Shown here in pieces: positions 4,301 to 63,980 of a stretch of DNA of 64,000 nucleotides. The translations under genes were made by a program, and so were the position numbers. Below the pieces are notes generated by a model, which saw only the letters and a list, made by a program, of their open reading frames with translations, ran no database searches and had not been told where the DNA came from. How positions within the stretch are numbered: position 1 is the first letter of the stretch; every line of letters begins with the position of its first letter. Where the stretch lies: NCBI RefSeq assembly GCF_964204645.1, contig NC_134033.1, positions 8,936,655-9,000,654 on the forward strand. The letters run 5' to 3'. The DNA is from Tubulanus polymorphus (taxonomy: Eukaryota > Animalia > Nemertea).

Positions 4301-4515
4301 TATCGCTCACGAACTATGCTATAGGATTGGTTGTCCCCAGATGAAAACACGCTCTATGCGATTCCTTGACGATGAGAGCGGCGAACTCACATTTAGGAAT
4401 CAATACTGGGTATTTCGCTTCGGTATCCAACGGCGAATTATGAATACGACAGCCACACTTCTGATGACCTCTTATTCATTAATATACAGTCTCAAATGGG
4501 AAACAGTTTGATTCT

Positions 4516-4704
4516 AGTAATAGGGGTTTAGATGTTCTAGGCCAAAGGTCGAAGGGTCGAGCTCGTAAAAAAATGAAAATAATAATAATTTACAGTTGAA
4601 TTAGTCGCGCACACTCCTAATTCAACTGTAAATTATTATTATTTTCATTTTTTACTCACTCGCCCCTTCAACCTTTAACCTAGAACAACTAAACCTCTAT
4701 TACT
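4516..4704. repeat. Left terminal hairpin (189-nt imperfect palindrome, 12-nt loop at 4605-4616)
   Basis: agtaatagggg...acagttgaattag-tcgcgcacactc-ctaattcaactgt...cctctattact. Confidence 0.95.
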
Positions 4705-4913
4705 CTTAAAATATTCATATATATATAAACATAATTTACATGAATAACATTTAAATTGACAGATTATTCAATATAAAAGTGTTAGCTCTTATAGAATAGA
4801 GATATAGATATATTTTAAACATTATTTCAATATTCATATTTGTATGAGTTAGATTTTTAAACATTAAAAGTGTTAGTAAAGTGTGATTGAAATAATACAT
4901 AATATAAATCATT

Positions 4914-5070
4914 GAATATTTATATTTATATGCGTTAAATTCTTATTTTCAATATAAAAAGTAACTAGTAATTAACGAGTGAAATAATTCATATTTAAAA
5001 CAGTGAATATTTATATTTATATGCGTTAAATTCTTATTTTATGTTTAAAAGTAACGAGTAATTAACGAGT
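4914..5070. repeat. Two ~90-bp-period direct repeats upstream of the ORF, mirrored in the right arm
   Basis: gaatatttatatttatatgcgttaaattcttatttt...aaaagtaacNagtaattaacgagt at 4914-4980 and 5005-5070. Confidence 0.85.
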
Positions 5071-5789
5071 TGATGAAAATATCAATTTTAATAACAAAAT
5101 TACTTATAAATATGAATGAACAGATACTACATTTCAAAGATATCGATTTAAATGAATTAGAAAAATATTTTACAATTAAAAATTTCATTCCTATTAAAGA
5201 TTTGATTAAAACTGCGCGTCTTCGTTTTCAAGTGAAAAATATTACTGAATTAGTGTTTAAAAATCACTATCTGATAATAGAGTTATCGAATGATAAAGAT
5301 AAATTCTTATTCAATACAATAATTCCAAAATTCACAACATTTGATGGAATAGATAAACATTTAATAATTACAGATGAAATGCAATCACTTTTTAATAATG
5401 AAAATTCACATAAAACATTATTTTTACACTTACGTTATTGCCCATTCAGAGAATGCTATGTTATTTTTTACAGTCGAACAATTTATCATTTCAACTGTCA
5501 AACAATTTATCATTTCAACTGTCAAACAATTTATCATTTCAACTGTCAAACAATTTATCATTTCAACAGTCGAACAATTTATCATTTCAACTGTCAAACA
5601 ATTTATCATTTCAACTGTCGAACAATTCTTTTATTTCAACTGTCGAACAATTTATCATTTCAACTGTCGAACAATTTATCATTTCAACTGTCAAACAATT
5701 TATCATTTCAACTGTTAAACAATTTATCATTTCATGCTAAACAATTCATGATCTTTAGGATAGTTACTGAAATCAAAATGATGTTTTAA
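5070..5789 (+). pseudogene. Truncated duplicate of the 5828-6430 ORF, fused to the 24-bp array
   Basis: Translation is identical to the minus-strand ORF up to ...CPFRECYV, then reads (TIYHFNCQ)n and (NNLSFQLS)n. Confidence 0.7.
5477..5739. repeat. Tandem array of 11 x 24 bp (AACAATTTATCATTTCAACTGTCR)
   Basis: Head-to-tail copies without spacers. Unit 7 is 25 bp and the last unit is degenerate. Confidence 0.95.
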
Positions 5790-5827
5790 TGTTTTTAAAT
5801 CATCAGTTATGTTATTAGTTTTTATCT

Positions 5828-6430
5828 TTAATATGTGTTATGATATTTTGATTTAAGATGGTGTGATTTATTGTTTCGAGTATAATATTTTCCACAATTA
5901 CATAAAACGCTTTCATTAGGATTATATTTGGGCGCAACAATTTCATTATCTAAATTACATTGAATTCCAACATCTTTATATGATTTTTCATTTGGAATGT
6001 CAGGGATAAATCTCTTTTCTTGTAATCTGAAAAACATAACATAGCATTCTCTGAATGGGCAATAACGTAAGTGTAAAAATAATGTTTTATGTGAATTTTC
6101 ATTATTAAAAAGTGATTGCATTTCATCTGTAATTATTAAATGTTTATCTATTCCATCAAATGTTGTGAATTTTGGAATTATTGTATTGAATAAGAATTTA
6201 TCTTTATCATTCGATAACTCTATTATCAGATAGTGATTTTTAAACACTAATTCAGTAATATTTTTCACTTGAAAACGAAGACGCGCAGTTTTAATCAAAT
6301 CTTTAATAGGAATGAAATTTTTAATTGTAAAATATTTTTCTAATTCATTTAAATCGATATCTTTGAAATGTAGTATCTGTTCATTCATATTTATAAGTAA
6401 TTTTGTTATTAAAATTGATATTTTCATCAA
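5828..6430 (-). CDS. 200-aa hypothetical protein with a C-terminal CxC-x10-H-x5-H zinc-finger-like motif
   Basis: Uninterrupted 600-nt ORF in very AT-rich DNA. It ends in VLCNCGKYYTRNNKSHHLKSKYH, resembling the CxCG...H..S..H modules of large dsDNA virus and Polinton-like proteins. The true start may be the second codon (ATG) or MNEQ. Confidence 0.7.
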   Translation of the reverse strand: MMKISILITKLLINMNEQILHFKDIDLNELEKYFTIKNFIPIKDLIKTARLRFQVKNITELVFKNHYLIIELSNDKDKFLFNTIIPKFTTFDGIDKHLIITDEMQSLFNNENSHKTLFLHLRYCPFRECYVMFFRLQEKRFIPDIPNEKSYKDVGIQCNLDNEIVAPKYNPNESVLCNCGKYYTRNNKSHHLKSKYHNTY

Positions 6431-6789
6431 CTCGTTAATTACTCGTTACTTTTGAACATAAAATAAGAATTTAACGCATATAAATATTCACTGTTTTAAA
6501 TATGAATTATTTCACTCGTTAATTACTAGTTACTTTTTATATTGAAAATAAGAATTTAACGCATATAAATATAAATATTCAATGATTTATATTATGTATT
6601 ATTTCAATCACACTTTACTAACACTTTTAATGTTTAAAAATCTAACTCATACAAATATGAATATTGAAATAATGTTTAAAATATATCTATATCTCTATTC
6701 TATAAGAGCTCACACTTTTATATTGAATAATCTGTCAATTTAAATGTTATTCATGTAAATTATGTTTATATATATATGAATATTTTAAG

Positions 6790-6975
6790 AGTAATAGGGG
6801 TTTAGTTGTTCTAGGTTAAAGGTTGAAGGGGCGAGTGAGTAAAAAATGAAAATAATAATAATTTACAGTTGAATTAGGAGTGTGCGCGACTAATTCAACT
6901 GTAAATTATTATTTTCATTTTTTTACGAGCTCGACCCTTCGACCTTTGGCCTAGAACAACTAAACCCCTATTACT
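6790..6975. repeat. Right terminal hairpin (186 nt)
   Basis: agtaatagggg...gaattag-gagtgtgcgcga-ctaattc...cccctattact. Confidence 0.95.
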
Positions 6976-7589
6976 GATTCTTCTTGTCGGTTCGAATATT
7001 CAATATAAGTTCATTGTAATGCCGTCTCGGAACCGACTTAATCCAATATAATTCCGCAGTCTTAAACTCACATGAATCAAGATCATCCAATTTTCGACTT
7101 TTGGCGTTGACTCTGCAATTGTAGACAAATCTTAATACTATAACACGCGTTAGCCATTCCCGCTACAAATCTGTGCTGCCCAAAACCAAGTTGATTAAGA
7201 CACTCCCATCAAGAAAATAGTGACCAAAACCTTGGTTCATCCAAATCTTAATGACATAGTTAGACACCAATTACCCGATGAGAGCCAAACTAGTTGAGAG
7301 GGCCGGTGAGTTGAGAGTTGTTTATATAGCTATTACATCACTTATTCAAAAATAGTGCCAGTTTGCTGGACATACGAAATACTCAATAAACAAGACAACC
7401 TACTTGGGCTGCCAAAACTGTATCCGGGTAAAAGTGACAAAGACTAAGTTTAGGTCCATTAATGGACATAGGAAAAATCTACAGATATGTTTTCTTAGCT
7501 ACAAATGACCCGGCAAAACATTGATTACAATATTGAAACATAAAACCACAATCCACTGTCACAGATATAAATACTCCTTGCTTAACTCA

Positions 7590-7665
7590 ATCAAAAAATT
7601 CAAATGAAATTTACCAACCAAATAAATAACAGGGTCAATCCCTATTTTAAGATGAAAAAAAAAAC
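7590..7665 (+). repeat. LINE-like 3' end shared with 51655-51722
   Basis: gaaatttaccaaccaaataaataacagggWcaatccctattttaagat plus an A-run at both sites. Confidence 0.6.
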
Positions 7666-16008: not shown

Positions 16009-16899
16009 CCGAGGGATCAACTACCATTTCTGCCATAGTTTTAAACCAATTAAAAAATTGAGTAGGAGGGTCAAGGTAAATCGTCTTAGGAGTTACGGTA
16101 GTTCTAATGAGACTGAGTGCAAAGGCGGATTTAGGGAGTGGATTAGTCCTACCCTTCAGAATTTGAATGTGCACACCAAAAAGTCTGGAAAATATTTTTT
16201 GCATAGATTTTTGAAGGAGAAAAATGAATCCAAATGTTGAGGGCCATAAAATACAGAATCTGCCCGTTTCATATTGGGCGTCCATTTCAATTTGCAGGTC
16301 CCACCATTCAAAGAATCCTAGATGTGCCCATGGAATAATCATAAGTTGAGGTAAGGCAACCATGAAATGTAAATTGCCCATGGGCAAAATGGTTTACCTT
16401 AAAAACAGGGGCACATGTTTTCCAAAACAAAACATGTTTTCCAAGGGCATTGCCTCTTTCAGAGTTTTTAACATTCAAAGTGCATGTTTATATTACATTT
16501 TATCTTTTCCACAAATCATTCCATAGACAAAAAGGCCAAAAATACACGCATCACACCACAATCATAGAACATCTCATGAGTTACAAATTTGGGATCAATT
16601 GTGGTAAAAAAATAAGTACTAATATGCTATGGAAATACCAAGTTATTGTACTACTCATTGCTTCCTGGTAACCTTATCAATGAACAAATGACCTTGAAAC
16701 TCAATGATCATAGAACATGTCAAGAGCTACAACTTTGTAATTGAATGTCGTCACAAAATATGCATAGGTACCATTTGGTGCCATCATAAACCACGTTATG
16801 AGCTATATGTGCTAACATTGTGCTTTTTTTGTTCTCTGGTTTTTAAAAACTACTGAACCAATGGCTGTTAACGAACCTAACTGGCCCGAAACATCTCGT

Positions 16900-18060: not shown

Positions 18061-18109
18061 CCACCAGCCATAATGGCTTGCTCGGCCCTGTATACAGGTA
18101 AACTTGCGC

Positions 18110-18453
18110 CCCGAGCTGGGCACAGTAATGATATCACAAGCCAGAGGAAAAATGGGCTCTATAGCTCCATAGCCAATGAAGTCAATGCAGTTGATGGGAA
18201 TAACCGAACCATCGACCAGCTAAAAGAGAAATGGCACGGTTTGAAGAAATGTGTAAAAAAAGCATGCATCCTACGAAGCTGCCGTGTGCTGAGAACAGGG
18301 CAAGACCAGCGCCAATTGTATTACGTTCAGAAATCCTACTACGAGGAGAAATTGGAACTTCACAGGATACAAATACACCAACAACCGGTATCGCAGTCCA
18401 AGACAGATATCCACAATGACATAAATAATGGAAATACGTATAAACAACTGTGA
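18110..18453 (+). pseudogene. Myb/SANT-like DNA-binding protein relic (Harbinger accessory ORF)
   Basis: ITSQRKNGLYSSIANEVNAVDGNNRTIDQLKEKWHGLKK, convergent with the Harbinger transposase relic. Confidence 0.7.
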
Positions 18454-19901: not shown

Positions 19902-21169
19902 AAACTAGGGGTCCAGGGACACCATGCCCACTTGGGAAGTGGTTCCAAATGCTCAACAATCTAACAATTTCAATATTTGACGCCCCCTGATGACCATATA
20001 CGAAAACCAATGACCTTGAAACTCACAACAATCATAGATAATGTCAGCAGCTACAAATTTGTAATTGATTGTGATAACAAAATATGCCTCGTTACCAATT
20101 TAATATGGAAATACTAAGTTATTCTACTACTAGGTGACCATATTTGAAAAACCCAATAACCTTGTTACCCACCACAATCATAGAACATGTCATGAACTAC
20201 AACTTTGCAATTGATCATGGTAACAAAATATGCCTAGGTACCAATATAATAAGGAAATACTAAGTTATTCTACTATTCAACGCCCCTGGTGACCATATAG
20301 AATAGCTAATTTCCTTAAAACTCACCACAATCATAGACAATGTCATGAGCTACAACTTTGCAATCGATTGTGGTAACAAAATATGTGTTGGTACAAATAT
20401 AATATAGAAATACTATGAGATATTGTATCATTCAACGCCCCCTGGTGGCCATATACAAAAACCAATGAACTTGAAAATCACCACAATCATAGAACACGTT
20501 ATAAGCTACAACTTTCTAATTCATTGTTGTAACAAAATATTCTTAGGTATCAATATAATGTGGAAAAACTTTTCCCACCTACGAATGAGTACTGATGACA
20601 CCAAGATGGCCGTCAATTGCGCCATTATTGGCTGATCAAAAATACCTGTCTCAGGTATGAAACATGCCTTTCCAAAGAATACCCATCAGCAATTGCAATG
20701 AGAAATGGCAAACCAGTAGGAAGCTACAGGACTCGGGCCAATATTAACATTTTTGGGCACTTAAAAGGTCATAGGACGACCATCTTGAGTCCGATCGACC
20801 CAATTTTTCTAATGCTGATGGGCCCTGGAGGGGTTCAAATATATACAAAAGATCAAGGTAGTTGAACAAGGCATCTTCAAAATTTCCCTAAAAAAGTTCA
20901 AAAACGAGTATAAAGTGCTGATTTTGGCGAACAACAATGGCTGCCAGTCGGCCATCTTGATTCTGACAGGGCCAGTTTTTTGGCTGAAGATGTGTCTAGG
21001 GTAGATACATGCATAAACCAAATATAAAGACATTACCTTGAAGCGTCTTCAAAACTTCCCAAAATAACTGGATTCCGTCTGCGGATGGACGGACGGACGG
21101 ACGGACGGACGATGGACGAAAAGTGAACGCAATAGCCCGCAGGGACTTAAGTCCCAAGTGGGCTAAAAA
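19902..21169 (-). mobile_element. HINE family A, copy 1 (complete)
   Basis: On the minus strand it reads TTTTTAGCCCACTTG + hairpin + (GTCC)n microsatellite, a central ~156-bp tandem array, then 3' subTIR CAAGTGGGC + hairpin + CTAGTTT. Confidence 0.85.
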
Positions 21170-25938: not shown

Positions 25939-27688
25939 AAAAAAAAAAACATGGCCGACGTAGCCAGTTCACGTTCTAACGAGCTCTGGGAATAATATAG
26001 CTTTCTACCTTCATGGCTGCGTAAAATCTTGGATATACGCTATACTGATCATCAAAATTTCAGTTCGTCGGCTTGATAGATCACCGTGATCAATTAGGGT
26101 ATGTCGAATTAACTGATTAAGTTGAAGTAGACAGCACAGTGATTATAAATGGATGAGTAATCAGCAGTTACAAAGTTGTCTTTTTTGCTGAAATTGAGTT
26201 TCTCTTAGTAACTCCGGATATTGAAATGCTATAAGAGAAATAAAGAAAAATCTGGGATGAGATTAAGAGGAATCGTATCGAATTTCTGCCTGCAATTCCA
26301 AGGTCACTATAATGTTTCTATGCGTAAACGGTGGTGTCAAATCTATCTGAATAAAACTGTACTCACGCGTGTCACTCTACAATCTCTACAGCGTAATCAG
26401 ACAATAATCTGTGATCTTAACAACCATGGCTGATCAAAGTACAACAGAGCAAGATAAACCACAGGGTAGTGACCTTGCAAATAAATCAACTGAAAGCGAG
26501 GATTTTATGAATTCTGGAAATATTGATGCTACGGACAAAACTTATGAACCTGCCCCTTCTGCTTCCCTATCTGCTGATAAATCTGATAAACGCCCGCAAA
26601 AGAAAAAAACGCAAACAGGTCCTGTATCATCCTCTGATGGCGATACCTCAATTAACAATACGAATGTCGATGCTATTGTAAACACGGATAATGAACACCG
26701 ATTATCCAAATAGTGCCTCTTCCTCTGCTATTTGTGAAACTCTAGTTATGATTCAAAAGTCCATGGTAACACACGAAAGTCTTGAAAAGTTTAAGCTCTC
26801 TCTGGAGGATACTATGGACCGAAAATTAGAATCGCATTACCAACGCGTAGAAAAAAACACTAGAATATGAATGCCGCCTTTACGATCTCGAACGAGAAAA
26901 TGATAATCTAAAGAAAGAACTAAAAGATCTTAATTTCAAAGATGACGAGCAAAAACTTGAGTTAAAATGTCTGAAACAGGACCTAATATCTATCAAAAAG
27001 GGTTGAAAATGAACAATATTCCCGCTGTAATAATATTCGTGTTTTTGGAATAAAGTAACAGGCCGGAGAAGACTGTGGGCTTACGCTGAAGGATATCGAT
27101 GTTTGTCACAGGAAAAAGCCAAAAATACCCAGCGTTGACGAGGATGGAGAGTACCTCCCGAATCCAATAATTGTTCGCTTCAAAGACCACCATGTTCATA
27201 ACAGGATATTTTTCAATAAAAAACACTTGAAAGGGAAAAAAATATTCGTGAAAGAAGATTTGTCGCCTGAAATTGTCACTTTTATGGCTACTGTTAGAAA
27301 AAATAGGGATTTCCTCAAAATGTGGGCGATCAATGGCAAAATTCATGCTCTTAACAAAGACGGTAAAAAACTGCCAATTAAACTTTATGAATTCAAATAT
27401 AAAAACAATTAAGTAATTTTCAAATTTACTGTACTGTGCTTATTTCTGCTTTTGTTTACTTATTAATGTGAAGTCATGTCTGTAATTCTATAATTCTCTC
27501 TGCTCCAGTGACGATGACTATCATTGCGCGCGGATTACAGAATTTATTATAGGTTTCCCTCAGCATGCTCACTTTTCTTCTTACTTTCATATATACTTGT
27601 CACACGTCGCGGACTTTGTCAATATTTATACACTGTGTTCATGTAACGTTATATCAATGGGACATTATAATTCCTTCTGCTTGCTAAT

Positions 27689-30600
27689 ATGATGGAATTT
27701 AACAGCATACAGCGTGACTGTTTGTATTATAACAGTAACGACTTAGTAAAGGAATTCTCTGACTCCAGTTTTGGCCTTATTCATGTAAATGTCAGGAGTC
27801 TGGACAAGAATTTTGATAATCTCCTTTTAACTTTAGATTCTACTGCATGTAAATTTGACGTCATAGGCGTCACAGAGACTTGGGCGAGAACAAGCATGGA
27901 TAATAGATCTTTATATCCAATTCCAGGATATAATTCAATTTTCAAATGCAGAGATCACTCTAGAGGTGGTGGAATAGCCTTTTATGTAAAAAATTCTATA
28001 AATTACAAAATTAGGACTGACCTCGATATACTCATTATTAATTCAGTTGAATATATGTTCATTGGAATTAATCTTAGGAGCTTTCCGGAAAAAATTCTTA
28101 CTGGTCTATTTTACAGACCTCCTCAACTCAAGGTCAGTGACGTTATTAGTGATTTCTCGAAAATATTTGATAAGATATCTTGTAATTCTAGAGTTTTTCT
28201 TATGGGAGATTTCAATATCAACATACTTAATGAGGATCGCGACCTTCACACGGCAAATTTTGTTGATACCTTGAGTTGCAATTCCTTTGCCCCTTTCATT
28301 AACAAACCTACACGCATTATTGATAAATCGGAATCTCTTCTAGATATAATTTTCACAAATTGTAATGAAGAGTATTACATCAAATCAGGCATAGTAATGA
28401 CTGATATCTCGGATCATCTACCTTTTCATCTACCTTCAATTCTAAATAGGGGTCTAATCTAAAACTAGGGGTCCAGGGACACCATGCCCACTTGGGAAGT
28501 GGTTTCAAATGCTCAATAATCTAACAATTTCCATATTCAACGCCCCATATAGAAAAACCAATGACCTTGAAACCCACCACAATCATAGAAAATGACATGA
28601 ATAACAACTTTGCAATTTATCATGGTAACAAAATATGCCTAGGTACCAATCTAATAAGGAAATGCTAAGTTATCCAACTATTCAACGCCCCCTGGTGACC
28701 ATATAGAAAAACTTATGTCCTTAAAACTCACCACAATCATAGATGATGTCATGAGCTACAACTTTGCAATCGATTGTGGTTAGAAAAATATACATAGGTA
28801 CAAATATAATATAGAAATACTAAGTTATTGTATTATTCAACGCCCCCAATGACCTGGAAACTCACCAAAATCATAGAACACGTTATGGGCTACAACTTTC
28901 CAACTGATTGTAGTAACACAATATGCTTAGGTATAAATATAATGTGGAAAAACTTTTTCCCACCTACGAATGAGTACTGATGACACCAAGATGGCCGCCA
29001 ATTGCGTTATAATCGGCTGATCAAGAATACCTGTCTCAGGTATAAAACAACCCTTTCCAAAGAATACCCATCACAAATTGCAATGAGAAATGGCAAACCA
29101 GTACGAAGCTTCAGGACCCAGAATTTCGGCCAAAATTGACGGCCATCTTGAGCCCGATTGACCCAATTTTTCTTAAGCTGATGGCTTCCTTGGGGGTTCA
29201 AATATATACAAAAGATCAAGGTAATTGATCACAGCGTCTTCAAAATTTCCGTCAAAAACTTCAAAAATGTCTAAAAAGTGCTGATTTTGGCGAACAACAA
29301 TGGCTGCCAGTCGGCCATCTTGATTCTGACAGGGCCAGTTTTTAGGCTGAAGATGTGTCTAGGGTAGATACATGTGTAACCCAAATATCAAGACATTACA
29401 TTGGAGCGTCTTCAAAATAACTGGATTCCGTCTATGGACGGACGAGAACGCAATAGCCCGCTGGGACTAAAGTCCCAAGTGGGCTAAAAACTGCACATCA
29501 TGTAAATTATAGACAAGTTAATGAACGCAACATGCGGATTTTCAAAAGGTATCTAATTGCCGAAAAATGGAATGATGTATATAATAGCACCAATGCCGAA
29601 CTGGCGTACAATACATTTATTACCTTATTTACTAAATACTATGACAACTCATTCCCAATTACCAAAAGGAAATGGAATCGATTAGAAGATAAGCTAAACC
29701 CTTGGATGACAAGAGGTCTATTAATTTCACTGAAACATAAGGAGAAGCTCTATACAGAATATCTTAAGAAGAGATCAGCTGAATCAAAATCAGTGTTTAG
29801 TAAATACAGAAACTGTTTTCACAAATGTATACGTGTGGCTAAAAAAGATTTTTAAATGCAAAAGTTTGAAACTATAGGGACTGATTCCAAGCAGACCTAG
29901 GGATTATCAATACTACATTACATAAAAGAAAGGCGTCTGATTTTCCTGAAAAGTTCAGTCATAATGATCAATTCATTACCGACCCCCTCGATATAGCTAA
30001 TAATTTCAAAGACTTTTTTATAAATATCGGTCCAAAACTAGCTGATAAAATTCCAGATACAAACAAAGATTTCAAGAGTTATCTAAAAAACAGAGTTGAA
30101 GACACAATTTTTCTTGCTCCAGTGACTAAATTAGAAATAGAAAATATTGTTAAACTTTTTAAATCAATGAATAGTTCTGGAGTCGATAATGTTAGTCAGA
30201 AAATATCAAAGGAGGTCATCCATCTTACCTCTGATCCCTTAGTATACATCTTCAATCTTAGTTTGGTATCTGGCGTTTTTCCTAGTACTCTCAAAATTGC
30301 TCAGGTTTGTCCAATTTATAAAACCGGGGATAAGGCAAGTTTAAAAAATTATCGCCCCATCTCAAACCTACCATGCCTCTCTAAAATTTTAGAAAAAATT
30401 ATGTATTCCTGTGTCGTTGAGTTTTTTGAATCTCATAATGTAATTTCAGACTCCCAGTTTGGGTTTAGGAAAAAACATTCCACGTCCTATGCCCAAACGA
30501 AAATAATCGATAACTTAATTGATAAATTGGATTGTGGAGAGACTATTTTAGGTATTTTTTTAGATTTATCTTAAGCTTTTGATACCATAGATCATGCAAT

Positions 30601-31622
30601 ACTATTTAGCAAACTTGAACACTATGGTAAAAATTATCTTTGTAACCGACTTCAGTGTGTAAAATATGGAGATAAAACATCCAATAGAATGAAAATAATA
30701 CGTGGAGTCCCACAAGGATCGATCTTGGGTCCTCTACTCTTTATATTGTACATTAATGACTGCCCCAATGCGTCAGCCATTTTTCAGACTATAATGTTCG
30801 CGGATGATACTAATATCTTTGCTTCCCATAAAGAGTACAGAATTTTGGAGAGAACTGTCAATTTTGAACTTGCAAATTTGGATGTCTGGTTTAAGTAAAA
30901 AAAACTTTCATTAAATCTGGACGAAACACATTTCATGGTATTTAGTAGAGCTAAGAAAAAAAAAAGACTTCCGTATATATCGGAGATTTACCTTTACAAA
31001 AAGTAAGAAACACTAAATTTGTAGGAGTCCAAATTGATGATGATTTAAATTGGAAAGCCCATAAACAATATATTGCGAAGAAAGCGGCACAAGGTATTGG
31101 TATCATCCGACTATTATCATATTTTGTTCCACGATCTGTTCTTCTAAAATGTACTATTCTCTTATTCATCCATACATTCATTATTGTAACATGACTTGGG
31201 CAAATAATACCACTACTAATCTTAACAGTCTTGTGGTATTACAAAAGAAAGCGATTAGAGCGATTACTGGAAGCGGCTCCTTAGCGCACATGTCACCTTT
31301 ATTCAAAAAGTACAAACTATTGAAATTGGAGGATATCAACAAACTACAAATTTGCCAGTTCATGTACTTATATAATAAAAATGATGTCCCTAAAGCCTTC
31401 GATGATTTCTTTTTACATAATTCACAAATTCACAACCACAACACTAGAAATAGTACTGGTATCAATTTTGTAATCCCATATTCAAGAACCAACCTTCGTT
31501 ACAATTCATTAAGATCGAAAGGTCCAAGACTTTGGAACACTTTGGATCCTAAGTTAAAACTATCTAAAAATCTCAGTTCTTTCAAAAGAAATTTAAAGAA
31601 GTCCATCATGGACAATTACTAA
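27689..31622 (+). pseudogene. LINE ORF2: apurinic endonuclease plus reverse transcriptase
   Basis: APE motifs NVRSL, GVTETW, GGGIAFY, YRPP, GDFNI and SDHLP. RT motifs YRPIS, QFGFR, FLDLS*AFD, GVPQGSILGP and FADD. Several stops and frameshifts. Confidence 0.9.
28462..29490 (-). mobile_element. HINE family A, copy 2, inserted in LINE ORF2 at an A/T run
   Basis: Same termini as 19902-21169. Confidence 0.85.
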
Positions 31623-33140: not shown

Positions 33141-33829
33141 GATAAATTTACCAAGCATATTTCAACACAGTATGGTTGCGCCATCTGCAAAATGAAAACC
33201 TACCTGACGGAATCAATTCTCTCAGCGGTCTCTATTCATATTCACGTGATTTATTCTTTTTTTTCCCTTTTCCACACTATTTTCATCGTAAGTACATAGG
33301 CATTTTTACCTTACCGCTGTTTCCGATACAATCCGGTAAATTTCATTGCGCTCACCTCGATCTACAGAACACTTCGTGCAAATTTTGATGAATCAACGTT
33401 ACAAAAGCACTGTCGGGCAGTAAACATAAAAAAATGAGCCCCATTCAATGAGGTGACATGTTTTTCTGAGTCGTCATCCCAAAATCCATCACAGGCTCGT
33501 CACTTCAATTATCAATTCAAGTATAAATAAACAAATTTATAGCCGCAAGACCTAACATTCAGGCGCGGTCTTCAAACAGCAATTTTAACAATTACCCATT
33601 TTCTTGTTCAGTACACTTAACCGATCCACAGGATATTTACTGCTCTAAATATTATAAACACTGTTGAGCTGTAATCGATGAATCGATGTGTGTCTTTACA
33701 TCGTCGTTCTGTGGATCTGTTGCAAGTTCTCCTCGCAATGAGAATCAAATAAAGTAAAAATACATTCATTATTCCCAGTGATTTGGCCGCGGACTTCAAT
33801 CAGTTAGTTAAACAAAATTTACCGGATAT

Positions 33830-35112
33830 TTAGTACGTTTAGATCAAGATTGGAGTCCGGGAGTTTTCTTCTTAAGAAATTGAGAGTTGGTTCCAATGGT
33901 ATATTAGTGAACAAGGAAACAGCGTCGAAAGATATAAATTTTTGTCCATTAGGTTTGAGATTTTTGAGTTTGTCTAAAAGATCCATATTGTGCCGAATGT
34001 GAGAATCAGAAAAAGTACCCAAAGCCGGGGATAGTACTTTAGCCAGATATTTGGAGAGCCGATATGATGGAGAATTGATATTAGAAATGATCGGTCTTAA
34101 CGGTGAATTGGGTTTATGAATTTTTGGAAGACCATAAGCATAAGGAAGATTTGGAAGCCGAGAGTTAAATTTGGAGAGGAAGTCCGAATTGTCAGGAAAT
34201 TTCTTAGAGATGTTTTTTAAACCTAAATTAAAAGCTGATTGCATCTTTTTCAAAGGGTTGTTTTTGATGGATTTGTAGAAATTGGAATCACCGAGAATAG
34301 CAAACATTTTAGAATTGTAATTGATCAAATCTTGAATAACAATTTTGCCGCCTTTATCAGCCTTGGAGATGCAGATGGTTTTGATGGATTTAAGTTCCTG
34401 GAGAGCAATCGAAAATCTCCGAGGAAAGAGCTGATTAGATTGACCTTGAAGGGTATTCCAAATGGTGTCCAAATTCATGAATATAAAATTGTATTGAAAA
34501 CTAGCCGGAGGAGATCTTTCCATACGTTCAACGAAATCCAAAATGTGTTGTTTTCTATGCGGGAGAGAGAAATTTAATCCTAAACCGAGAACTTGAATTT
34601 GTGTTTTGGTTAATTTAGCCGAAGATAGATTGACAACATTATCAGTAGCGCAAAATTTGGTCCAAGGGCTGTTGTCGATTAATTTATTCAGAATGGAAGA
34701 GAAATGCGAATTTTTCTTTTTTTTTATTTAGACGATGTACCGCGCAAAGATTCTTGATGCCCGAATGAAGAGAGTGCCAAAGGAAAGCATCAGGTATATG
34801 GTGTCTGAGAAAACGTTCTGCTTGTCGCATTTTATAGAAATTAGAGTTGGTAGTTTCTTTTGCTTCCAAAATGCAATGTCTTAGATGAGATGCTGCTTCA
34901 TTGGAAAATGGTTGATCTGATTTGAATTTATTCAACCAATTCAGAGATTTAGGAATAACCTGTTCTTGGAGACTTTTTTGAAGAAATATGACGTTTTCTT
35001 TGGATTTGTGAGCTTTATAAGCAGCAGATTCATATTTTCGAAAAGCAAAGATCAAATGAGGAAAGGTTATGAATAAGAATTTCAAAGCCAAATTAAAATC
35101 CGTGGGTAACAT
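33830..35112 (-). pseudogene. PLE ORF, N-terminal half (one frameshift in the A-tract near 34720)
   Basis: ORFs 34684..35112 and 33819..34541 join across a poly-A slip. Confidence 0.85.
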
Positions 35113-35231
35113 AATAGAACGATGACCACACTCAAACGTGGTGAACGGATAATAAGATAAGATCCCACTATTTACAGATTAAAAGAATTTAAAAACCAGA
35201 ATTTATTTATTAAATCTAAAATATTTAAAAG

Positions 35232-35273
35232 ACACGACGTTTCGATCTCACCCTAGAGATCATCGTCAGGTGT
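35232..35273 (-). ncRNA. Minimal type I hammerhead ribozyme (5' pLTR)
   Basis: ACAC-CUGACGA-U-GAUCUC-UAGGGU-GAGAUC-GAAA-C-GUC-GUGU. Confidence 0.8.
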
Positions 35274-35533
35274 GAGAAATAGACTAAAAACAGGGGTATA
35301 TATACAGAGGAGGACAGGTTAATTGAGTAAATTGGTGAGTGAGTAAATAATTAGTGTTTGGCAAGGCATGAAGTAATATACTTAGAAAGAAGGGAATTAT
35401 GCGGAGAAAAGCCATTATTTAAATTGGTACTAATATCTGAGTGACGAGTAATTAGGGCAGACTCAACTATGTGGCGTTTAGTGTAATTGCTGGAAGTATA
35501 AATAATTTCGGCTTTATCAAAATTAAAACGATG

Positions 35534-36516
35534 TCCTTGAACACTTTGAATCCGAAATTCTTCCTAAGTACGCTGGCTCTAAACCTAACTTTTGGATTAG
35601 ATATGTTGATGATATTCTGAGCTTAGTTTCTGATAATTTTGATCTTACCTCTTTTATCGACTTCATCAACTCCCAATATCCATCTTTGAAATTCACTTTT
35701 GAATGGGAACAAAATGACCAAATTCCGTTTTTAGATGTTCTAATTCACAATAAATTTTCTCATTTGATTTTCTCAGTCTACCGTAAACCTATCAACGCTG
35801 AGGCATACCTTCACTTCTTTTCGTTTACTGCCAAATCAATCAAAATCGGTCTCGCTCAAGGCCTCTTTCTCCGTGCACTGCTGATCTGCGATGAAACCTT
35901 CCTTTCGGCTGAATTTGACCATATATCCAACTCTCTTAGAAAATTGGCTTACCCTGATCACATTTTGAAAATCGCTATTTCTAAGGCTAAACGTACTTTC
36001 TTCAATTCTAAACCTCCAGAAAATAAAAAACACATTTCAGAGTTCATTGTAGTTCCGTATGTACCTGTTTTGGAAAAGTTTCGTCACTCTCTCCCTTTAT
36101 TGGATAAACAAATCATTTTCACGTATGAAAACAAAATTAGTAAGACTTTGGTTAAAAACAATCAATCTAAACCTTTGGACTGCGGAGTTTACAAAATTCC
36201 TTGTCTTGGCTGTGATAAAATTTACTTTGGAGAAACTGGTCGTGATTTAAAAACTCGAATTTCGGAACACAAAGAGGATATAATAAGTCAAAAACCGGCT
36301 AGTGGCGTAGCCAATCACGTTTGGAACACTGGTCATCGTTTTAATTTTGATAAAGCCGAAATTATTTATACTTCCAGCAATTACACTAAACGCCACATAG
36401 TTGAGTCTGCCCTAATTACTCGTCACTCAGATATTAGTACCAATTTAAATAATGGCTTTTCTCCGCATAATTCCCTTCTTTCTAAGTATATTACTTCATG
36501 CCTTGCCAAACACTAA
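35534..36516 (+). pseudogene. PLE ORF, C-terminal half (RT YVDD motif, thumb, GIY-YIG endonuclease)
   Basis: Open frame from LEHFESEIL through RYVDD to the stop at 36516. Confidence 0.9.
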
Positions 36517-36593
36517 TTATTTACTCACTCACCAATTTACTCAATTAACCTGTCCTCCTCTGTATATATACCCATGTTTTTAGTCTATTTCTC

Positions 36594-36635
36594 ACACCTG
36601 ACGATGATCTCTAGGGTGAGGTCGAAACGTCGTGT
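36594..36635 (+). ncRNA. Minimal type I hammerhead ribozyme (3' pLTR)
   Basis: ACAC-CUGACGA-U-GAUCUC-UAGGGU-GAGGUC-GAAA-C-GUC-GUGU. Confidence 0.8.
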
Positions 36636-37029
36636 CTTTTAAATATTTTAGATTGAATAAATAAATTCTGGTTTTTAAATTCTTTTAATCTGTAAATAGT
36701 GGGATTTTATCTTATCATCCGTTCACCACGTTTGAGTGTGGTCATCGTTCTACCAAGCATATTGATCCATCGAAGCGTTTTTCATTCCAAAGAAAAAGAT
36801 TTTAGTGGTACTATATAGTCTTTTCTTCACGGTATAATGAGTAATCTTCATTCAAACAAAATGTTCTTCACACCCGAACACAATAGGTAATACATGAACC
36901 AGGGTTTTCTTAGTATCCAATATTCATATTATGCCTTTTCAGGTTAAAGCTTATGATACATATTTCTGACCATGTACGGGACACAACTTGATTAGGTCGT
37001 TTTGGAAATTTACTCGGTCCTGCACATTT

Positions 37030-37602: not shown

Positions 37603-39535
37603 AATTTTTGGCACTAAAATTTGTATTTCCGAGTAGTACTTACCCTTTCCTATGGTTTTTGCCAATATTTTCTAAATTTGGATTGATCGCCAATGGTTTT
37701 TCTATACGACCCGGCCCAGCGGTATTGCATTTAGCCACCGGCGAAATCCGCCATCTTTTTACGTCATAGCAGACCCAAAAAATGCAGCTATGCGGGGCAG
37801 GTGGGCGGGATTCCCACCATAGGAAAGGGTAAGTACTACTCGGGAAATACAAATTTTAGTTCCAAAAATAATATTTCCGTCGAGTACTGTACCCTTTCCT
37901 ATGGTTTTTGCTAGACTAGCCTAGCACAAGGATGGTGAGAAAGGTAGATAGAAAAACCACCGCTCAAACGCAAGGTAAGAGGGAAAAAGAGAGCACTTAC
38001 CCAAGCACGGAATGGAGCACTGTAGCACAGGGAAGACCGGTTGGCCACAGTGAGTCCGTCCAGCTCAGGGGCCCCCCCCCCGGAATTTTGCGAAATTAAT
38101 ACTTGCAGATATGAGCCCAAACTATGTACAAGGATACACCTCCTGTGATCCTGATGATGCAACATAAATATTCTACACTAAAGGGTCCGATCGGAAAGAA
38201 CGGACACCTTGAGCCATGACAACAGGACCAAGTGAAGTTAATGAGCCTTACTGGCCTGAAACATCCCGTAAATAAAATGACGTGAATGTCGATGGAGAAT
38301 TCCAAAAGGCGGCCCGACAGACTTCCTCCAACGGAGCACCCGAAAAGGCTACGCAGGAAGTAGCCATAGACCTCACTTGATGAGAAACCACTCCCTCCGA
38401 GGAAAGATTCTCCTTCAATAAAATGTCCTTGATCAGTGAAAAGACCCATCGGGCCACTGTGTCCTGTGAAATATCACCCTTTAGGTGATCCAGCAGCGGA
38501 ATAAATAAACGCTCCCGTGAACCCCTCCGTGGAGCAGAGCGATCTAAATAGAAACACAACGCCCGCACAGGACATAAAGTCCTGTCCAGAGTCCTGTCGC
38601 TCGTTGGTTCTTTGCCAAAAATTCCAAAGCAGGCCGCAGCGAAACAAATTCTTTCGCTGGCCCAAAGACAATATGACCTTGTCGGACTAAAAGCGCATGA
38701 ATCTCAGAGCGACGGGCCGAGCAAGCCAAGAACAGCAAAAATACAGTCTTCTTCGACAAATTTGCAAATGACGCTGCCGAAAGAGGTTCAAATGGAGCCT
38801 CCATTAACTTCTTCAAAATTACAGACAGATCCCATGGTGGAACTGTCCTTGGTACCCGAGGCCAGGAAATAGAAAACCCTGCAACAAGCTGGGATATCCG
38901 ATGATCCCCTGCTACATTTGGCCATCCAGAAGCACGCAATGTATGAGAAATCGTGGAGCGGTAACCTTTAATAGTTATGACCTGCAACCCTTTTACTACA
39001 AATAGGTGCAGTAAAAAATCTGCCAATTGAGCTACAGAGGGTGAGCATGGATCAATTTCCCCTGCAGCACACCAATCCGCAAAATGACTCCATTTGGCAT
39101 CGGAAATGGATCCTGCGATAGAGGAGGCAGCCTGTTCTGAAAAGCCTGAAGCTGACAAGGATCGCTGGACAATGGCCAGGCGAGCAAATTTAACCACTGG
39201 CTGTTTGGATGATGCCGAAAGTTCCCCGGAGACAGAAGCGATGGGAAATTCGGAAGAATCCTGGGGTTGTCGCACAGTAGGTTGAGAAGTGGTAGGAGCC
39301 ATTTCTGAGCCGGCCAACATGGTGCTACCAGAACTATGTTGCAATTGACTGATCTCTCCAGTAAGCGCGGCAGGACTGGTGTGGGCGGGAACGCATACGC
39401 ATGCATCCCCGACCAGTCCAGAGAGAAGGCATAGACCCCCCACGCTTCCGCGTCTGGAAACGGGGACACAAACAGAGGACACTTCCGATTGAACCGGGTG
39501 GCAAACAGATCCAGCAGCGGATTAGGGGACTGGGG
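37603..39535 (-). mobile_element. 5'-truncated DIRS retrotransposon (MT-like domain, tyrosine recombinase, ICR and right terminus)
   Basis: DLFATRFN...AFSLDWS...YAFPP...LVAPCWP (MT). PPWDL...FEPL...ACSARRSEIHAL and HQVRSMATS...AAFWNS.STFTSFY (YR). Inverted-repeat module at 37605-37910. Confidence 0.9.
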
Positions 39536-40047
39536 ATCGGAATGGTTTTATTGTAGACGTGGACCAAGTTAGTGCAAGCTTTTGGGTAGTTGTTATTTGA
39601 ATATTGTAGTGGTTTAACGGAATCTATCATCATGTTGATAATTGCTAGATTACTTATCGGATTGTGTTGAAATGATTTTGCATAGAGACATTTACAATTG
39701 AAAGAAAAAACGTGACTAACTCGAGTGACTTCAGGTGAAGAGAAGCAAACACGGAAATAGATAGGAGCCATGATTTTTCTTTTTAAAATAATAAAAACGT
39801 TAAGCAAGAATAAGTTGCATTTCCTTCAAATGACAATCCACTACGATCATCCGATAAAGTTTATTGCCACCATAGACTACCACCCCCTGGCTGTTTGGAG
39901 ACAGGGAACCAGTCTTCAATTCAATTCAGAATTTATTTTAAAGAAAAGCGGTTTTTAAGTTTTAGATATTCAAACTGAAAAATATAAATGTTCGTACAGA
40001 GATTTTACAAATGGCAGCTAACGCAAGCACCTAATGAAAGTAAAAGA

Positions 40048-40982
40048 AGGTACCAATATAATAAGGCAATACTAGGTTATTCTACTATTCAAACGCCCCT
40101 TGGTGACCATATAGAATAACTGATTTCCTTAAAACTCACCACAATCATAGACGATGTCATGAGCTACAACTTTGCAATTGATTGTGGTAACAAAATATGT
40201 ATTGGTACAAATATATTATAGAAATACTAAGATATTGTATTATCAAACGCCCCTTGGTGGCCATATACAGAAACCAATGAACTTGAAACTCACCACAATC
40301 ATAGAACACGTTATAAGCTACAACTTTCGTATTCATTGTTGTAACAAAGTATGCTTAGGTATCAATATGATGTGGAAAAACTTTTTCCCACCTACGAATG
40401 AGTACTAATGACACCAAGATGGCCGCCAATTGCGTCATAATTGGTTGATCCAAAAAAATCTGTCTCAGGTATAAAACATCCTTGTCCAAAGAATACCCAT
40501 CACAAATTGCAATGAGAAATGGCAAACCAGTAGAAAGCTACAGGACTCAGAATTCGGGCCAAAATTAACATTTTTGGGCACTTAAAAGGTCATGGGATGA
40601 CCATCTTGAGTCCGATCGACCCAATTTTTGTTATGCTGATGGGCCCTGAAGGGGTTCAAATATATACAAAAGATCAAGGTAATTGATCAAGGTGTCTTCA
40701 AAATTTCCCTCAAAAAGTTCAAAAACGTGTCCAAAGTGCTGATTTTGGCGAACAACAATGGCTGCCAGTCGGCCATCTCGATTCTGACAGGGCCAGTTTT
40801 TGGGCTGAAGATGTGTCTAGGGTAGATACATGTATAAACCAAATATCAAGACATTACCTTGAAGCGTCTTCAAAACTTCCCAAAATAACTGGATTCTGTC
40901 TACGGACGGACGAACGGAAGGACGACGGACGAAAAGTGAACGCAATAGCCCGCTGGGACTTAAGTCCCAAGTGGGCTAAAAA
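40048..40982 (-). mobile_element. HINE family A, copy 3 (truncated)
   Basis: Aligns to 20237-21169. Confidence 0.85.
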
Positions 40983-41597
40983 CCAATGAACTTGAAACTC
41001 AACACAATCATAGAACACGTTATATAATATAAGCTACAACTATCCAATTCATTGTCGTGACAAAATATGCTTAGGTATCAAAATAATGTGGAAAAACTTT
41101 TTCCCATCTACGAATGAGTACTGATGACACCAAGATGGCTGCCAATTGCACCATAATTGGCTGATCAAAAATACCTCAGGTTTTAAAACATCCTTTTCCA
41201 AAGAATACCCATCACAAATTGCAATGAGAAATGGCAAACCAGTAGGAAGCTACAGGACTCTGCATTCAGGCCAAAATTTAGATTTTTGGGCACTTAAAAG
41301 GTCATAGGACAGCCACCTTTAGTCCGATCGACCCAATTTTTTCTTATGCTGATGAGCCCTTGGGGAATTCAAATATATAGGAAAGATCAAGGTAATTGAC
41401 TCAAAAAGTTCAAAAATGTGTAAAAAGTGCTGATTTTGGCGAACAACTGATATTAGGCTGACGATGTGTCTAGGGTAGAAACATGTGTAACCCAAATATA
41501 AATACATTACATTGAAGCGTCTTCAAAACTTCCAAAATAACTGGATTCCGTCTACGGACAATAGCCCGCTGGACTAAAGTCCCAAGTGGGCTTAAAA
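40983..41597 (-). mobile_element. HINE family A, copy 4 (truncated, directly abutting copy 3)
   Basis: Aligns to 20460-21169 with internal deletions. Confidence 0.8.
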
Positions 41598-47062: not shown

Positions 47063-47866
47063 AGGTAAAAATCCCCCCGGTAAATATCCCCCCGGTAAAT
47101 ATCCCCCTGGTAAAAATCCCCCCAGGTAAAAATCCCCCCCGGTAAAAATCCCCCTAGGTAAAAATCCCCCCTGGTAAAAATCCCCCCCATATCCACTTTT
47201 CTATAAAACTAGAGTAGAAAAAATTAACTTTTTACAACATTATTTAGGAATACATAAGTACATTAGATATTTTATTTTTACTTTTAAACCATAGTTTTTA
47301 TAGAAAATTTCAAAATAAGTATTTTGTAATTACAGTACAGTACAGTACAGTAATTATTCTTAAATTATCTTAGGGGTAATCACTCCAGTGCCCAAAAAAT
47401 CAAAGAAGTTAATAAATGTAAATCAAATGGGTTGGCTCCGTGACTAAATAACTGTTAAGTAATAATTATTCATTTTCAACAGTGGCCAATCTTTAATCAG
47501 CAAGTAGGCTAATTTAAATGACTGAATTCAATCAACTGACTCGTACCCCTAGAATAAGTATTTTGTCTCTACACATTTTATTCTTTATTAAACTTTGGTA
47601 ACCGTATTTAATGGATGGAATTACTATACTAGAGTTAAATAAAGCAATAAAGTGCAATAAAATTTCGAATCTATATTTTTTTAAACATAATAGCTGTTGA
47701 AAATTTTAGTGAAATCGATTATGGGGGGATTTTTACCAGGGGGGATTTTTACCTAGGGGGGATTTTTACCGGGGGGGATTATTACCTAGGGGGGATATTT
47801 ACCGGGGGGATTTTTACCGGGGGGATATTAAACGGGGGTATTTTTACTGGGGGGAATTTTTACCTG
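47063..47866. mobile_element. Foldback-type MITE with modular TIRs
   Basis: (GGTAAAAATCCCCCC)n at 47063-47190 and its reverse complement at 47722-47866. Confidence 0.8.
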
Positions 47867-59795: not shown

Positions 59796-59819
59796 AAAAA
59801 CTATGTTTAGAGAGAAACT

Positions 59820-60605
59820 TTACAATAGATTGTGGTAACAAAATATGCATACGTAGGTACCGATATAAATAGATAAATTATATATTATTCAATATTTAAC
59901 TCCCCCTGGTGGCAAGAACTAAGAATTAGGTGATTCCAATTCCAAGTGAGATGTATCTTACCACAGTGCTCATGACCATCAAATATCATGACTATAAGTT
60001 AAAACCTCATGATATTTTCCTCAAAAAACTTTTTTTCCACCTAGGAATGAATACTGATGACACTAAGATGGCCGCCAATTGCGTGGTAATAAGCTGATCA
60101 AAAAATTGTTTGCATGTTTTAAAATGCCCTTTCCACAGAATACCCATCACAAATTTCAATGACAAAAATCAGTAGGAAGCTACAGGAGTCCGAAGTCAGG
60201 CCAAAATTGACATTTTTTGGTGCAAAAAAGGACACAGGGCGGCCATCTGGAGTCCGATCACCCCAATTTTTCTCATGCCCATGAGCCCATGGGGCATACT
60301 AATATATACGAAAGATCAAGATAATTGATCAAAGTGTCTTGAAAATTTCTCTCGAAAACTTGAAAAATCTGTAAAAAGTGCTGATTTTGGCAAACAACAA
60401 TGGCTGCCCATTGGCCATCTTGATTCTGACTGGACAAGTTTTTGGGCTGAAAATGTGTCTAGGGTAGATACATGTGTAAACCAAATACGAAGGCATTACA
60501 TTCAAGCCTCTTTAAAACTTCCCAAAATAACTGGATTGCGTCTACGCATGGACGAAAAGTGAACGCAATAGGCTGCTGGGACTTAAGTCCCAAGTGGGCT
60601 AAAAA
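59820..60605 (-). mobile_element. HINE family A, copy 5 (older, truncated)
   Basis: Ends in ...gggacttaagtcccaagtgggctaaaaa. Confidence 0.8.
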
Positions 60606-62658: not shown

Positions 62659-63800
62659 CCCAGACGACCATCATTGCATGGCTTACCTTGCTAAAGTCCA
62701 TTCTTTCATAAACCTCGCAGCAGCCTTTTTTTGGGCTGTCCATTCAATGGGTCTAATTTGAATTTTTGTAGCATGAAAATGAAGAGGACAGATACAGATA
62801 TAGTAGGCTAGTACCTAGCCGTCGTTCTATCTACTAACAAACGGTTGTAGGGAACCGGTAACAACGACTGGTATTGAGACTACAGATATAGATTTTCCAG
62901 ATCAATGGACTGACATGGACCGCCGTGTACGCGTGGTTTGGCGCCATGCATGTTGTTTACCAATGTTGCGTCAGTTTTCAATCCCTTACACTCATTTTCG
63001 ATTAACGTTCTTATTTATAGCCTTGTACCTTAACACTATGATTCCTAATTTATTTCTATACTTATAATGCTACCATTTCATAAGTAAAGATGTCTAAACT
63101 GGACATTTAGCGGCAGTGTGGAAGGCCCATTTCGATAGTACATATATTCGTTGCCAAGAAACAACATGGCGCCCGCGTCGCTAAATCAGTGAATATTCGA
63201 ATCGAAACATCAAAATAAAAGAAAATCTAAGGCCGAGATTTGAAATTGAAAATTCCTGAAGACTTGTAGAGAAATTGATGCAAAATCTCACCCATCATAC
63301 CGATTTAGATAGATAGGTCTAGAGAGATTCGTTCGTAACAATGAGTAGCAAATTGACCGTGAAACAGTCGAAAAAAGATCGACCAAAATCTTCAGGTAGG
63401 CCACGTACCCACAGCACACACGCACACAACATAGGGGCTTGTAAACTGGCTTGGATTTTATTTCCGTGTTGTTGATTATTTCGCAAGAATGCTGCTAAAT
63501 TTGAACTGCAAATGAATTCAAAATACCTTGGCGTTGACATTGTTTTTTAGGTCCTAACATCTACTAAAAATAAATAAAGTTCTGGTAAAAAATTGGACCT
63601 TAAACTTAAAGGTCTTCAGGCAGTCGCAACGCCTTACTATATGAAAATAGCAAGGTATGAAACAGCTTTGCTTTTGCCAATGACCGTATTGATGCAGTGA
63701 AACCGGTGTGCATGAGCAGCAATTTTCCGAGCCATGAGCTGTCAACCAAAGAACATAGGGGGCGGATCTAGAGAGTGAATTGGGTGGCTAACCACCCGTC

Positions 63801-63980
63801 TAGTCTGAATACCGGTTGTTGTTACCGGTTCCCTACAACGTCTGACGCTAAAGTATCATATAGAGGTTAACTCTATTCAGATGATTTTAAAGTTTTCCGC
63901 CCCGCTATTAGTCTGAATACCAGTCGTTGTTACGGTTCCGTACAACGTCTGACGCTAAAGTATCATATAGAGGTTAACTC
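63801..63980. repeat. Two tandem copies (108-bp period) of a TAGTCT-terminated transposon end; an inverted copy lies at 62844-62882
   Basis: TAGTCTGAATACC.GT.GTTGTTACCGGTTCCCTACAAC matches the reverse complement of GTTGTAGGGAACCGGTAACAACGACTGGTATTGAGACTA. Confidence 0.65.

Follow-up and report, generated by a model that had tools for sequence, protein, structure and literature searches.

The right tip of a 2,460-bp element (4516-6975, beginning with AGT and ending with ACT) in a 64,000-nt window of Tubulanus polymorphus DNA, the window being the whole stretch that was analysed, is a palindrome that folds flush, and in public short reads of a related sample (X6), aligned to the element, its two arms change together across the family while a mismatch patch in the middle stays unequal. 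Since both arms co-vary in these reads, the hairpin is a maintained feature of the family, and its tip was found in a single orientation relative to the host DNA. The features of the element are listed in Table 1.

Table 1. Features of the element and of its terminal palindromes (window positions)
Feature	Positions	Strand	Remarks
Whole element, non-autonomous	4516..6975	.	AGT…ACT ends; 440 reads exit at 6975 into unlike flanks
Target-site duplication, 6 bp, left copy	4510..4515	+	Identical six bases on both sides; chance of a match ~3e-4
Target-site duplication, 6 bp, right copy	6976..6981	+	Same six bases as left copy 4510..4515
Left terminal inverted repeat, ~950 bp	4516..5473	+	
Left terminal palindrome, 189 nt	4516..4704	-	Same orientation as right; 2 private mismatches
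Subterminal repeat, ~91 bp, 2.2 copies	4874..5070	+	Mirrored in right repeat
Truncated inverted copy of the 205-codon frame	5055..5789	+	Extends into tandem array
Tandem array of 24 bp, 10.9 copies	5473..5734	+	
Open frame of 205 codons, ending in CxCG…H…H motif	5828..6445	-	Motif common to virophage/PLV-type contigs
Right terminal inverted repeat	6027..6975	-	
Right terminal palindrome, 186 nt	6790..6975	+	3'-terminal strand here; last base pairs with first
Inner-arm half of perfect 26-bp outer stem	6790..6815	+	Partner 6950-6975, with which it varies jointly between families
Inner-arm half of mismatch patch	6816..6838	+	Partner 6927-6949; distinguishes the arms by 4 G·T and 3 G·A
AT-rich inner stem	6839..6926	+	12-nt loop at 6878-6889; shorter in sister families
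Outer arm: mismatch-patch half and terminal 26 nt	6927..6975	+	Arm adjoining host DNA

Of 939 aligned bases, 935 are identical between the left and right inverted repeats, the alignment having gaps of 3 and 6 nt. The element (4516-6975) was found to carry no gene for a polymerase, integrase or capsid and has only the orphan frame and its truncated copy; the CxCG…H…H motif of this frame is presumably zinc-finger-like. The truncated inverted gene copy is likely a copy-back product, and the long inverted repeat of this element copy is itself probably another, because read depth over the duplicated stretch of the gene (141-180) does not exceed that over the unique part (172-232). At 6431-6712, reads either skip 194-258 nt or step back 269-278 nt, indicating that the number of subterminal repeat units is variable within the read family.

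Maverick/Polinton elements are reportedly the subject of Kapitonov and Jurka (2006). As far as the available text of two sources goes, they have AG…CT ends, a 6-bp duplication and TIRs of 100-1500 bp (PMC8097293; 10.1101/2023.08.22.554363), and those of vertebrates carry the terminal motif (AGT)2, (AG)3 or (AC)3A (PMC8097293). The element described here has AGT…ACT ends, a 6-bp target-site duplication and a TIR of ~950 bp, which lies within that range; these ends, duplication and repeat length fit Mavericks, and the element is therefore likely, judged by its sequence, to be a non-autonomous Maverick/Polinton-like-virus derivative. It differs from Maverick/Polinton elements in that the genes of autonomous members (pPolB, RVE integrase, ATPase, protease, capsid) are absent from it, and in its six-base end AGTAAT, which is one base off (AGT)2, the reference motifs being those of vertebrate elements. 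Neither an HUH nickase gene nor a nick site was found in the element.

The end motifs had 0 matches in the viral contigs and metagenome contigs searched, and no helper, polymerase or nicking enzyme was found in searches of viral/metagenome contigs and proteins. The single match of a gapped end pattern (L001) was rejected, as it falls by chance within a phage-like contig and has no stem. The orphan 205-codon protein belonged to no Pfam or PHROG family; word searches and viral contigs gave no homologue, and the Atlas returned unnamed clusters only. HMMER matched 7 metagenome proteins over the last ~40 residues only, with no Pfam family and no names. Each of the 3 viral loci returned had the C-terminal motif; an A32-type ATPase occurs in two of them and a virophage V20 capsid in one, and the likeness spans only ~27-40 residues. 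In the AT-rich viral contigs L002, L003 and L004, which are of virophage/PLV type, this small motif is found in a gene close to one contig end, and no terminal palindrome was found in the stretches of them that were examined, outside which some ends may lie.

Other mobile sequences were observed in the window. Reverse-transcriptase-like frames at 33819-36752, with a GIY-YIG match that is weak and fails the family cut-off (E 8e-4), and a 422-bp inverted repeat of 99% identity (35115-35536 / 36331-36752), are taken by us to be a Penelope-like element. A fragmented LINE with Pfam matches to endonuclease and reverse transcriptase lies at 27671-31622, and overlapping minus-strand frames at 38248-39547, with no Pfam match, presumably resemble a DIRS-type retroelement (by eye). 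The LINE-like and Penelope-like neighbours point to an animal as the probable host. In addition, there were a foldback-like element whose arms are inverted arrays of 15-16-bp C-rich units (47064-47864), a dispersed repeat family of at least 5 copies with internal 146-156-bp tandem units (16561-16773, 19991-21063, 28537-29426, 40037-41537, 59816-60526), a possible MITE with a 39-bp inverted repeat 918 nt apart (62844-63839), and a frame with a Myb/SANT-like domain (18061-18453, E 1e-9), possibly a transposon remnant. Another high-copy repeat (7580-7644), 600 bp from the element, reached an X6 depth of ~3,450.

The initial annotation had described the right tip as a flush hairpin whose last base pairs with its first, and this was confirmed: 6790-6815 and 6950-6975, the outer 26 bp, pair throughout by Watson-Crick rules. 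The mismatch patch of 23 bp lies directly inside this perfect stem, and the AT-rich stem contains a 3-nt bulge and an uneven A/T run. That both arms start alike, as also annotated, is true but follows from any terminal palindrome, as does the flush pairing. When DNA folding energies of 6790-6975 were computed for both strands, the 3'-terminal strand was the more stable, in the direction predicted (-75.7 kcal/mol, z -21, against -67.5 kcal/mol, z -19, for the complement strand), and for neither strand was any of 200 shuffles as stable; two DNA parameter sets gave identical energies and were counted as one. The strand difference sits mostly in the outer arms, which alone gave -54.3 kcal/mol on the 3'-terminal strand and -47.1 kcal/mol on the complement, a difference of 7.2. 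Terminal pairing was equally probable on both strands (0.87-0.99). A scan of the whole window for local palindromes (at least 32/40 pairs) returned only the two tips of the element, and an Rfam search of 4400-7100 for structured RNA families gave 0 matches.

Position by position, the seven non-Watson-Crick sites in the GC-rich part were verified to be four T·G (6816/6949, 6817/6948, 6824/6941, 6836/6929) and three G·A or A·G (6831/6934, 6837/6928, 6838/6927) on the 3'-terminal strand. The claim that all mismatches favour this strand holds for 7/7, with a two-sided p of 0.016 if the sites are independent, but by adjacency they form only 4 clusters, for which p is 0.125, and both strands fold flush; the polarity bias is weak to modest. 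The pattern had also been said to be kept at the left end. The left tip does repeat the seven mismatches, because the two inverted repeats are near-identical (935/939), and it was rejected as independent support for polarity; its private A·C and T·T on the 3'-terminal strand are off the pattern. Single-strand deamination in adenovirus-type strand displacement was set aside as a source of the pattern: it should presumably leave G·T on the 5'-terminal strand, contrary to the observation.

Conservation of the mismatches between copies was found in part. Five of the seven sites were unchanged among the best-supported 40 of 80 difference rows of the X6 reads, but the sites at 6817 and 6831 become Watson-Crick in 36% and 28% of reads (553/1518 and 534/1882). 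Among the unpartnered family variants, two fit the polarity (6926, giving G·T on the 3' strand, and 6937, giving G·G or A·G), one is neutral (6924, A·A), and up to two oppose it (6828 and 6848, which give A·C unless linked to another change).

The X6 sample may differ in strain or species from the window, most of its reads being <95% alike. Depth was ~1,200 on the hairpin and 3-9 in the flank 6995-7124, which suggests, as a rough estimate, hundreds of ends in the sample. Of 5,123 X6 reads aligned on 6730-6990, 440 exit exactly at 6975 into flanks agreeing only 0.38, which identifies 6975 as a genuine end of an element inserted at many sites. From the marine metagenome run X1 only 4 records could be aligned, which is no evidence of habitat.

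Covariation between copies, which the annotation had proposed looking for, was observed. Among the best 40 of the 80 difference rows, the stem accounts for 32, the inner flank for 7 and the loop for 1. Sixteen of the stem rows combine into 8 pairs of complementary changes, one on each arm, at shares of 0.20-0.60 (6811/6954, 6812/6953, 6814/6951, 6815/6950, 6865/6902, 6866/6901, 6868/6899 and 6859/6908), matched by variant frequency rather than by linkage within single reads. A seventeenth stem row, 6856, pairs with 6908 in the register of the 551/1051 reads that are without the bulge of this copy, and a one-base deletion is present on both arms (6812, 577 reads; 6953, 100 reads). Eight rows at 6800-6808 had no partner among the 40 listed. 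The loose-end sequences of 402 and 637 reads at the outer arm are, by eye, the reverse complement of the inner arm with the 6800-6815 variants, and six of the eight rows, together with the listed insertion/deletion, are mirrored there; the remaining two may be alternative placements of the insertion. The five other stem rows without a partner are those weighed above against the polarity. Sister families have a different outer stem and a shorter inner stem, and those with the shorter stem still close one (by eye). Selection and arm-to-arm copying are not separable in this co-variation, as copying alone would give it without function.

The initial annotation had inferred flip/flop terminal resolution. 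If a tip were inverted, its host-flanked reads would fall on the inner arm and depth would climb abruptly at 6790; the step there was ~57, compared with 831 at the outer tip (bin means), and inverted or standalone tips make up at most ~6% of host-flanked ends, an estimate that depends on read placement and is more secure in the close family than in the sister ones. Inversion should also bring inner-flank sequence to lie behind 6975, where a different sequence was seen by eye. The loop had a single orientation relative to the arms in the best 7 of 59 X6 rows (88/88 reads), and of three loop-containing X2 rows two had the same orientation and one a self-complementary loop. Strand-changing joints within the palindrome were found in 59/5123 reads in the five such rows listed, and these reads may be library fold-backs or an effect of the 3-nt bulge of this copy. 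No 6789/6975 strand-change joint occurred among 15 of 31 joints listed, loose ends at 6975 showed no inner-flank majority, and head-to-head junctions were not evident in these short reads. Both ends of this element copy have the same hairpin orientation. The occurrence of only one orientation across copies had been named beforehand as one of three outcomes that would refute the annotation's inference, and a nearly exclusive single orientation is what was seen.

The reading that we favour, tentatively and by analogy, is that the tip is a self-primer whose resolution is asymmetric and yields one orientation, as happens at the left end of minute virus of mice (MVM). A helper element would supply the integrase and replication proteins, and on a single-stranded intermediate the 3' tip would fold locally before the two long repeats meet, after which a polymerase would extend the flush 3'-OH through the element. 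Copying through the hairpin would then give a head-to-head junction with arms unequal at the mismatch patch, of which only the outer-type arm would be cut or bound as an end, as at the MVM left end, so that all progeny would integrate in one orientation and the inner arm would go unused as an end. The patch would thus mark the outer arm as the sole usable end, leaving the inner arm almost never beside host DNA, and G·T and G·A would be the cheapest means by which the arms could differ while the 3' fold is retained. Self-priming is plausible, and all enzymatic steps of priming and resolution are inferred. One orientation would be compatible with hairpin priming, because the MVM left end primes and then resolves on one arm. 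The panhandle duplex of both tips was computed at -218.8 kcal/mol and the two hairpins at -142.2 kcal/mol; the panhandle being ~77 kcal/mol more stable, priming would need kinetic control.

Ordinary protein-primed Maverick replication, with the hairpin as a selected structure that does not prime (a cruciform, end protection, or an integrase or packaging signal) and the patch as a protein-binding feature as in poxvirus telomeres, is somewhat unlikely. In its favour, Mavericks are laid out with AG…CT ends, a 6-bp duplication and long inverted repeats, this reading accounts just as well for the co-variation and the single orientation, and the panhandle is thermodynamically preferred; in vaccinia, according to the available text of PMC8956199, hairpin mismatches serve packaging and not DNA synthesis. 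This reading leaves unexplained, however, why in several families the inner arm extends precisely to the complement of the last base and no further, as well as the mild 3'-strand bias, and here the repeat that typically ends vertebrate Mavericks is imperfect.

It is unlikely that the palindrome is a by-product of end fold-back copying, re-homogenised patchwise by template switching or repair and without a role, its G-rich polarity arising by chance or mutational bias. The truncated inverted gene copy is another likely copy-back within the element, one contig has a self-complementary loop, the polarity p of the 4 clusters is only 0.125, and the Halocafeteria authors, in the part of their preprint available, raise accidental annealing as an alternative (10.64898/2026.07.28.741278). 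Homogenisation, however, should erase the middle patch, yet the patch persists between two co-varying stems, and does so in families set apart by numerous substitutions, by indels and by the length of the stem; moreover, the inner arm almost never serves as an end.

AAV-type resolution, in which a nick inside the hairpin and extension would invert it each round to give flip and flop ends, is permitted by the anatomy, both arms starting alike, and could produce the few strand-changing joints, but it is very improbable, and since host-flanked ends show almost only one arm type and the loop, in the rows listed, one orientation it is largely refuted for integrated copies; the two ends of this copy also agree, whereas AAV ends are independent in the available text of PMC11575299, and the joint expected at 6789/6975 is missing among those listed.

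Terminal palindromes together with hairpin priming have already been proposed for protist virophages and PLVs, and what is new here is the fixed polarity with co-varying arms. In Halocafeteria seosinensis, palindromes at TIR tips occur in endogenous virophages (subtypes 1, 2, 5, 6) as well as in PLV subtype 4, where they go preferentially with non-pPolB replication genes, hairpin priming being proposed, according to the parts of the preprint available (bioRxiv 10.64898/2026.07.28.741278). Like the present palindrome, they lie within the TIR and adjoin the target duplication, while the present element differs in its animal host, its length (~187 nt against 52 nt in subtype 5), its non-autonomous nature and arms that co-vary in reads. 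A fixed asymmetric mismatch patch with one orientation, as found here, is not described in the palindrome section of that preprint, whose supplements may hold such data. For Mavericks, neither "hairpin" nor "palindrom" occurs in the main text of PMC8097293 or 10.1101/2023.08.22.554363, and no terminal hairpins of animal Mavericks were found in the literature searched, which lay mostly outside subscription journals and Repbase.

At the MVM left end, in the text of PMC1185569 as available, priming is followed by copying into a junction that resolves on one arm, a mismatch making the arms unequal. The left-end hairpin of MVM/LuIII shares with this element an imperfect terminal palindrome, a fixed mismatch (2/7 mismatches being polymorphic here) and one orientation (PMC1185569); in contrast, this element has no NS1/HUH gene, integrates with a target duplication, has two identical ends and is known from sequence alone. 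The AAV inverted terminal repeats, which occur in two orientations independently (PMC11575299, available part), resemble the element in a flush 3' hairpin, a possible primer, at two identical ends, whereas AAV has flip and flop forms and a T shape and this family one orientation and a single stem. Poxvirus flip-and-flop telomeres, as covered in the available text, are likewise hairpins with conserved mismatches, but they are covalently closed, have two isoforms and are not integrated (PMC8956199).

How Mavericks/Polintons and their relatives start replication is modelled rather than shown, and the 2026 preprint, in the parts available, puts hairpin priming forward for relatives in protists but offers no evidence on selection or orientation. 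The present family sets two measurable constraints, co-varying arms and a fixed orientation, and rules out, for integrated copies, flipping of the simple AAV type. Should the hairpin be no more than a by-product, this would be an ordinary non-autonomous transposon with palindromic tips; the self-priming model predicts head-to-head junctions cut on one arm. It is a rather doubtful possibility that, in a lineage of integrating, Maverick-like animal viruses, a hairpin replaced protein priming, with the fixed G·T/G·A patch as a polarity mark and only the outer arm cut and integrated; if true, the logic of a parvovirus left end would be joined to a retroviral-type integrase, and would be readable in many genomic copies.
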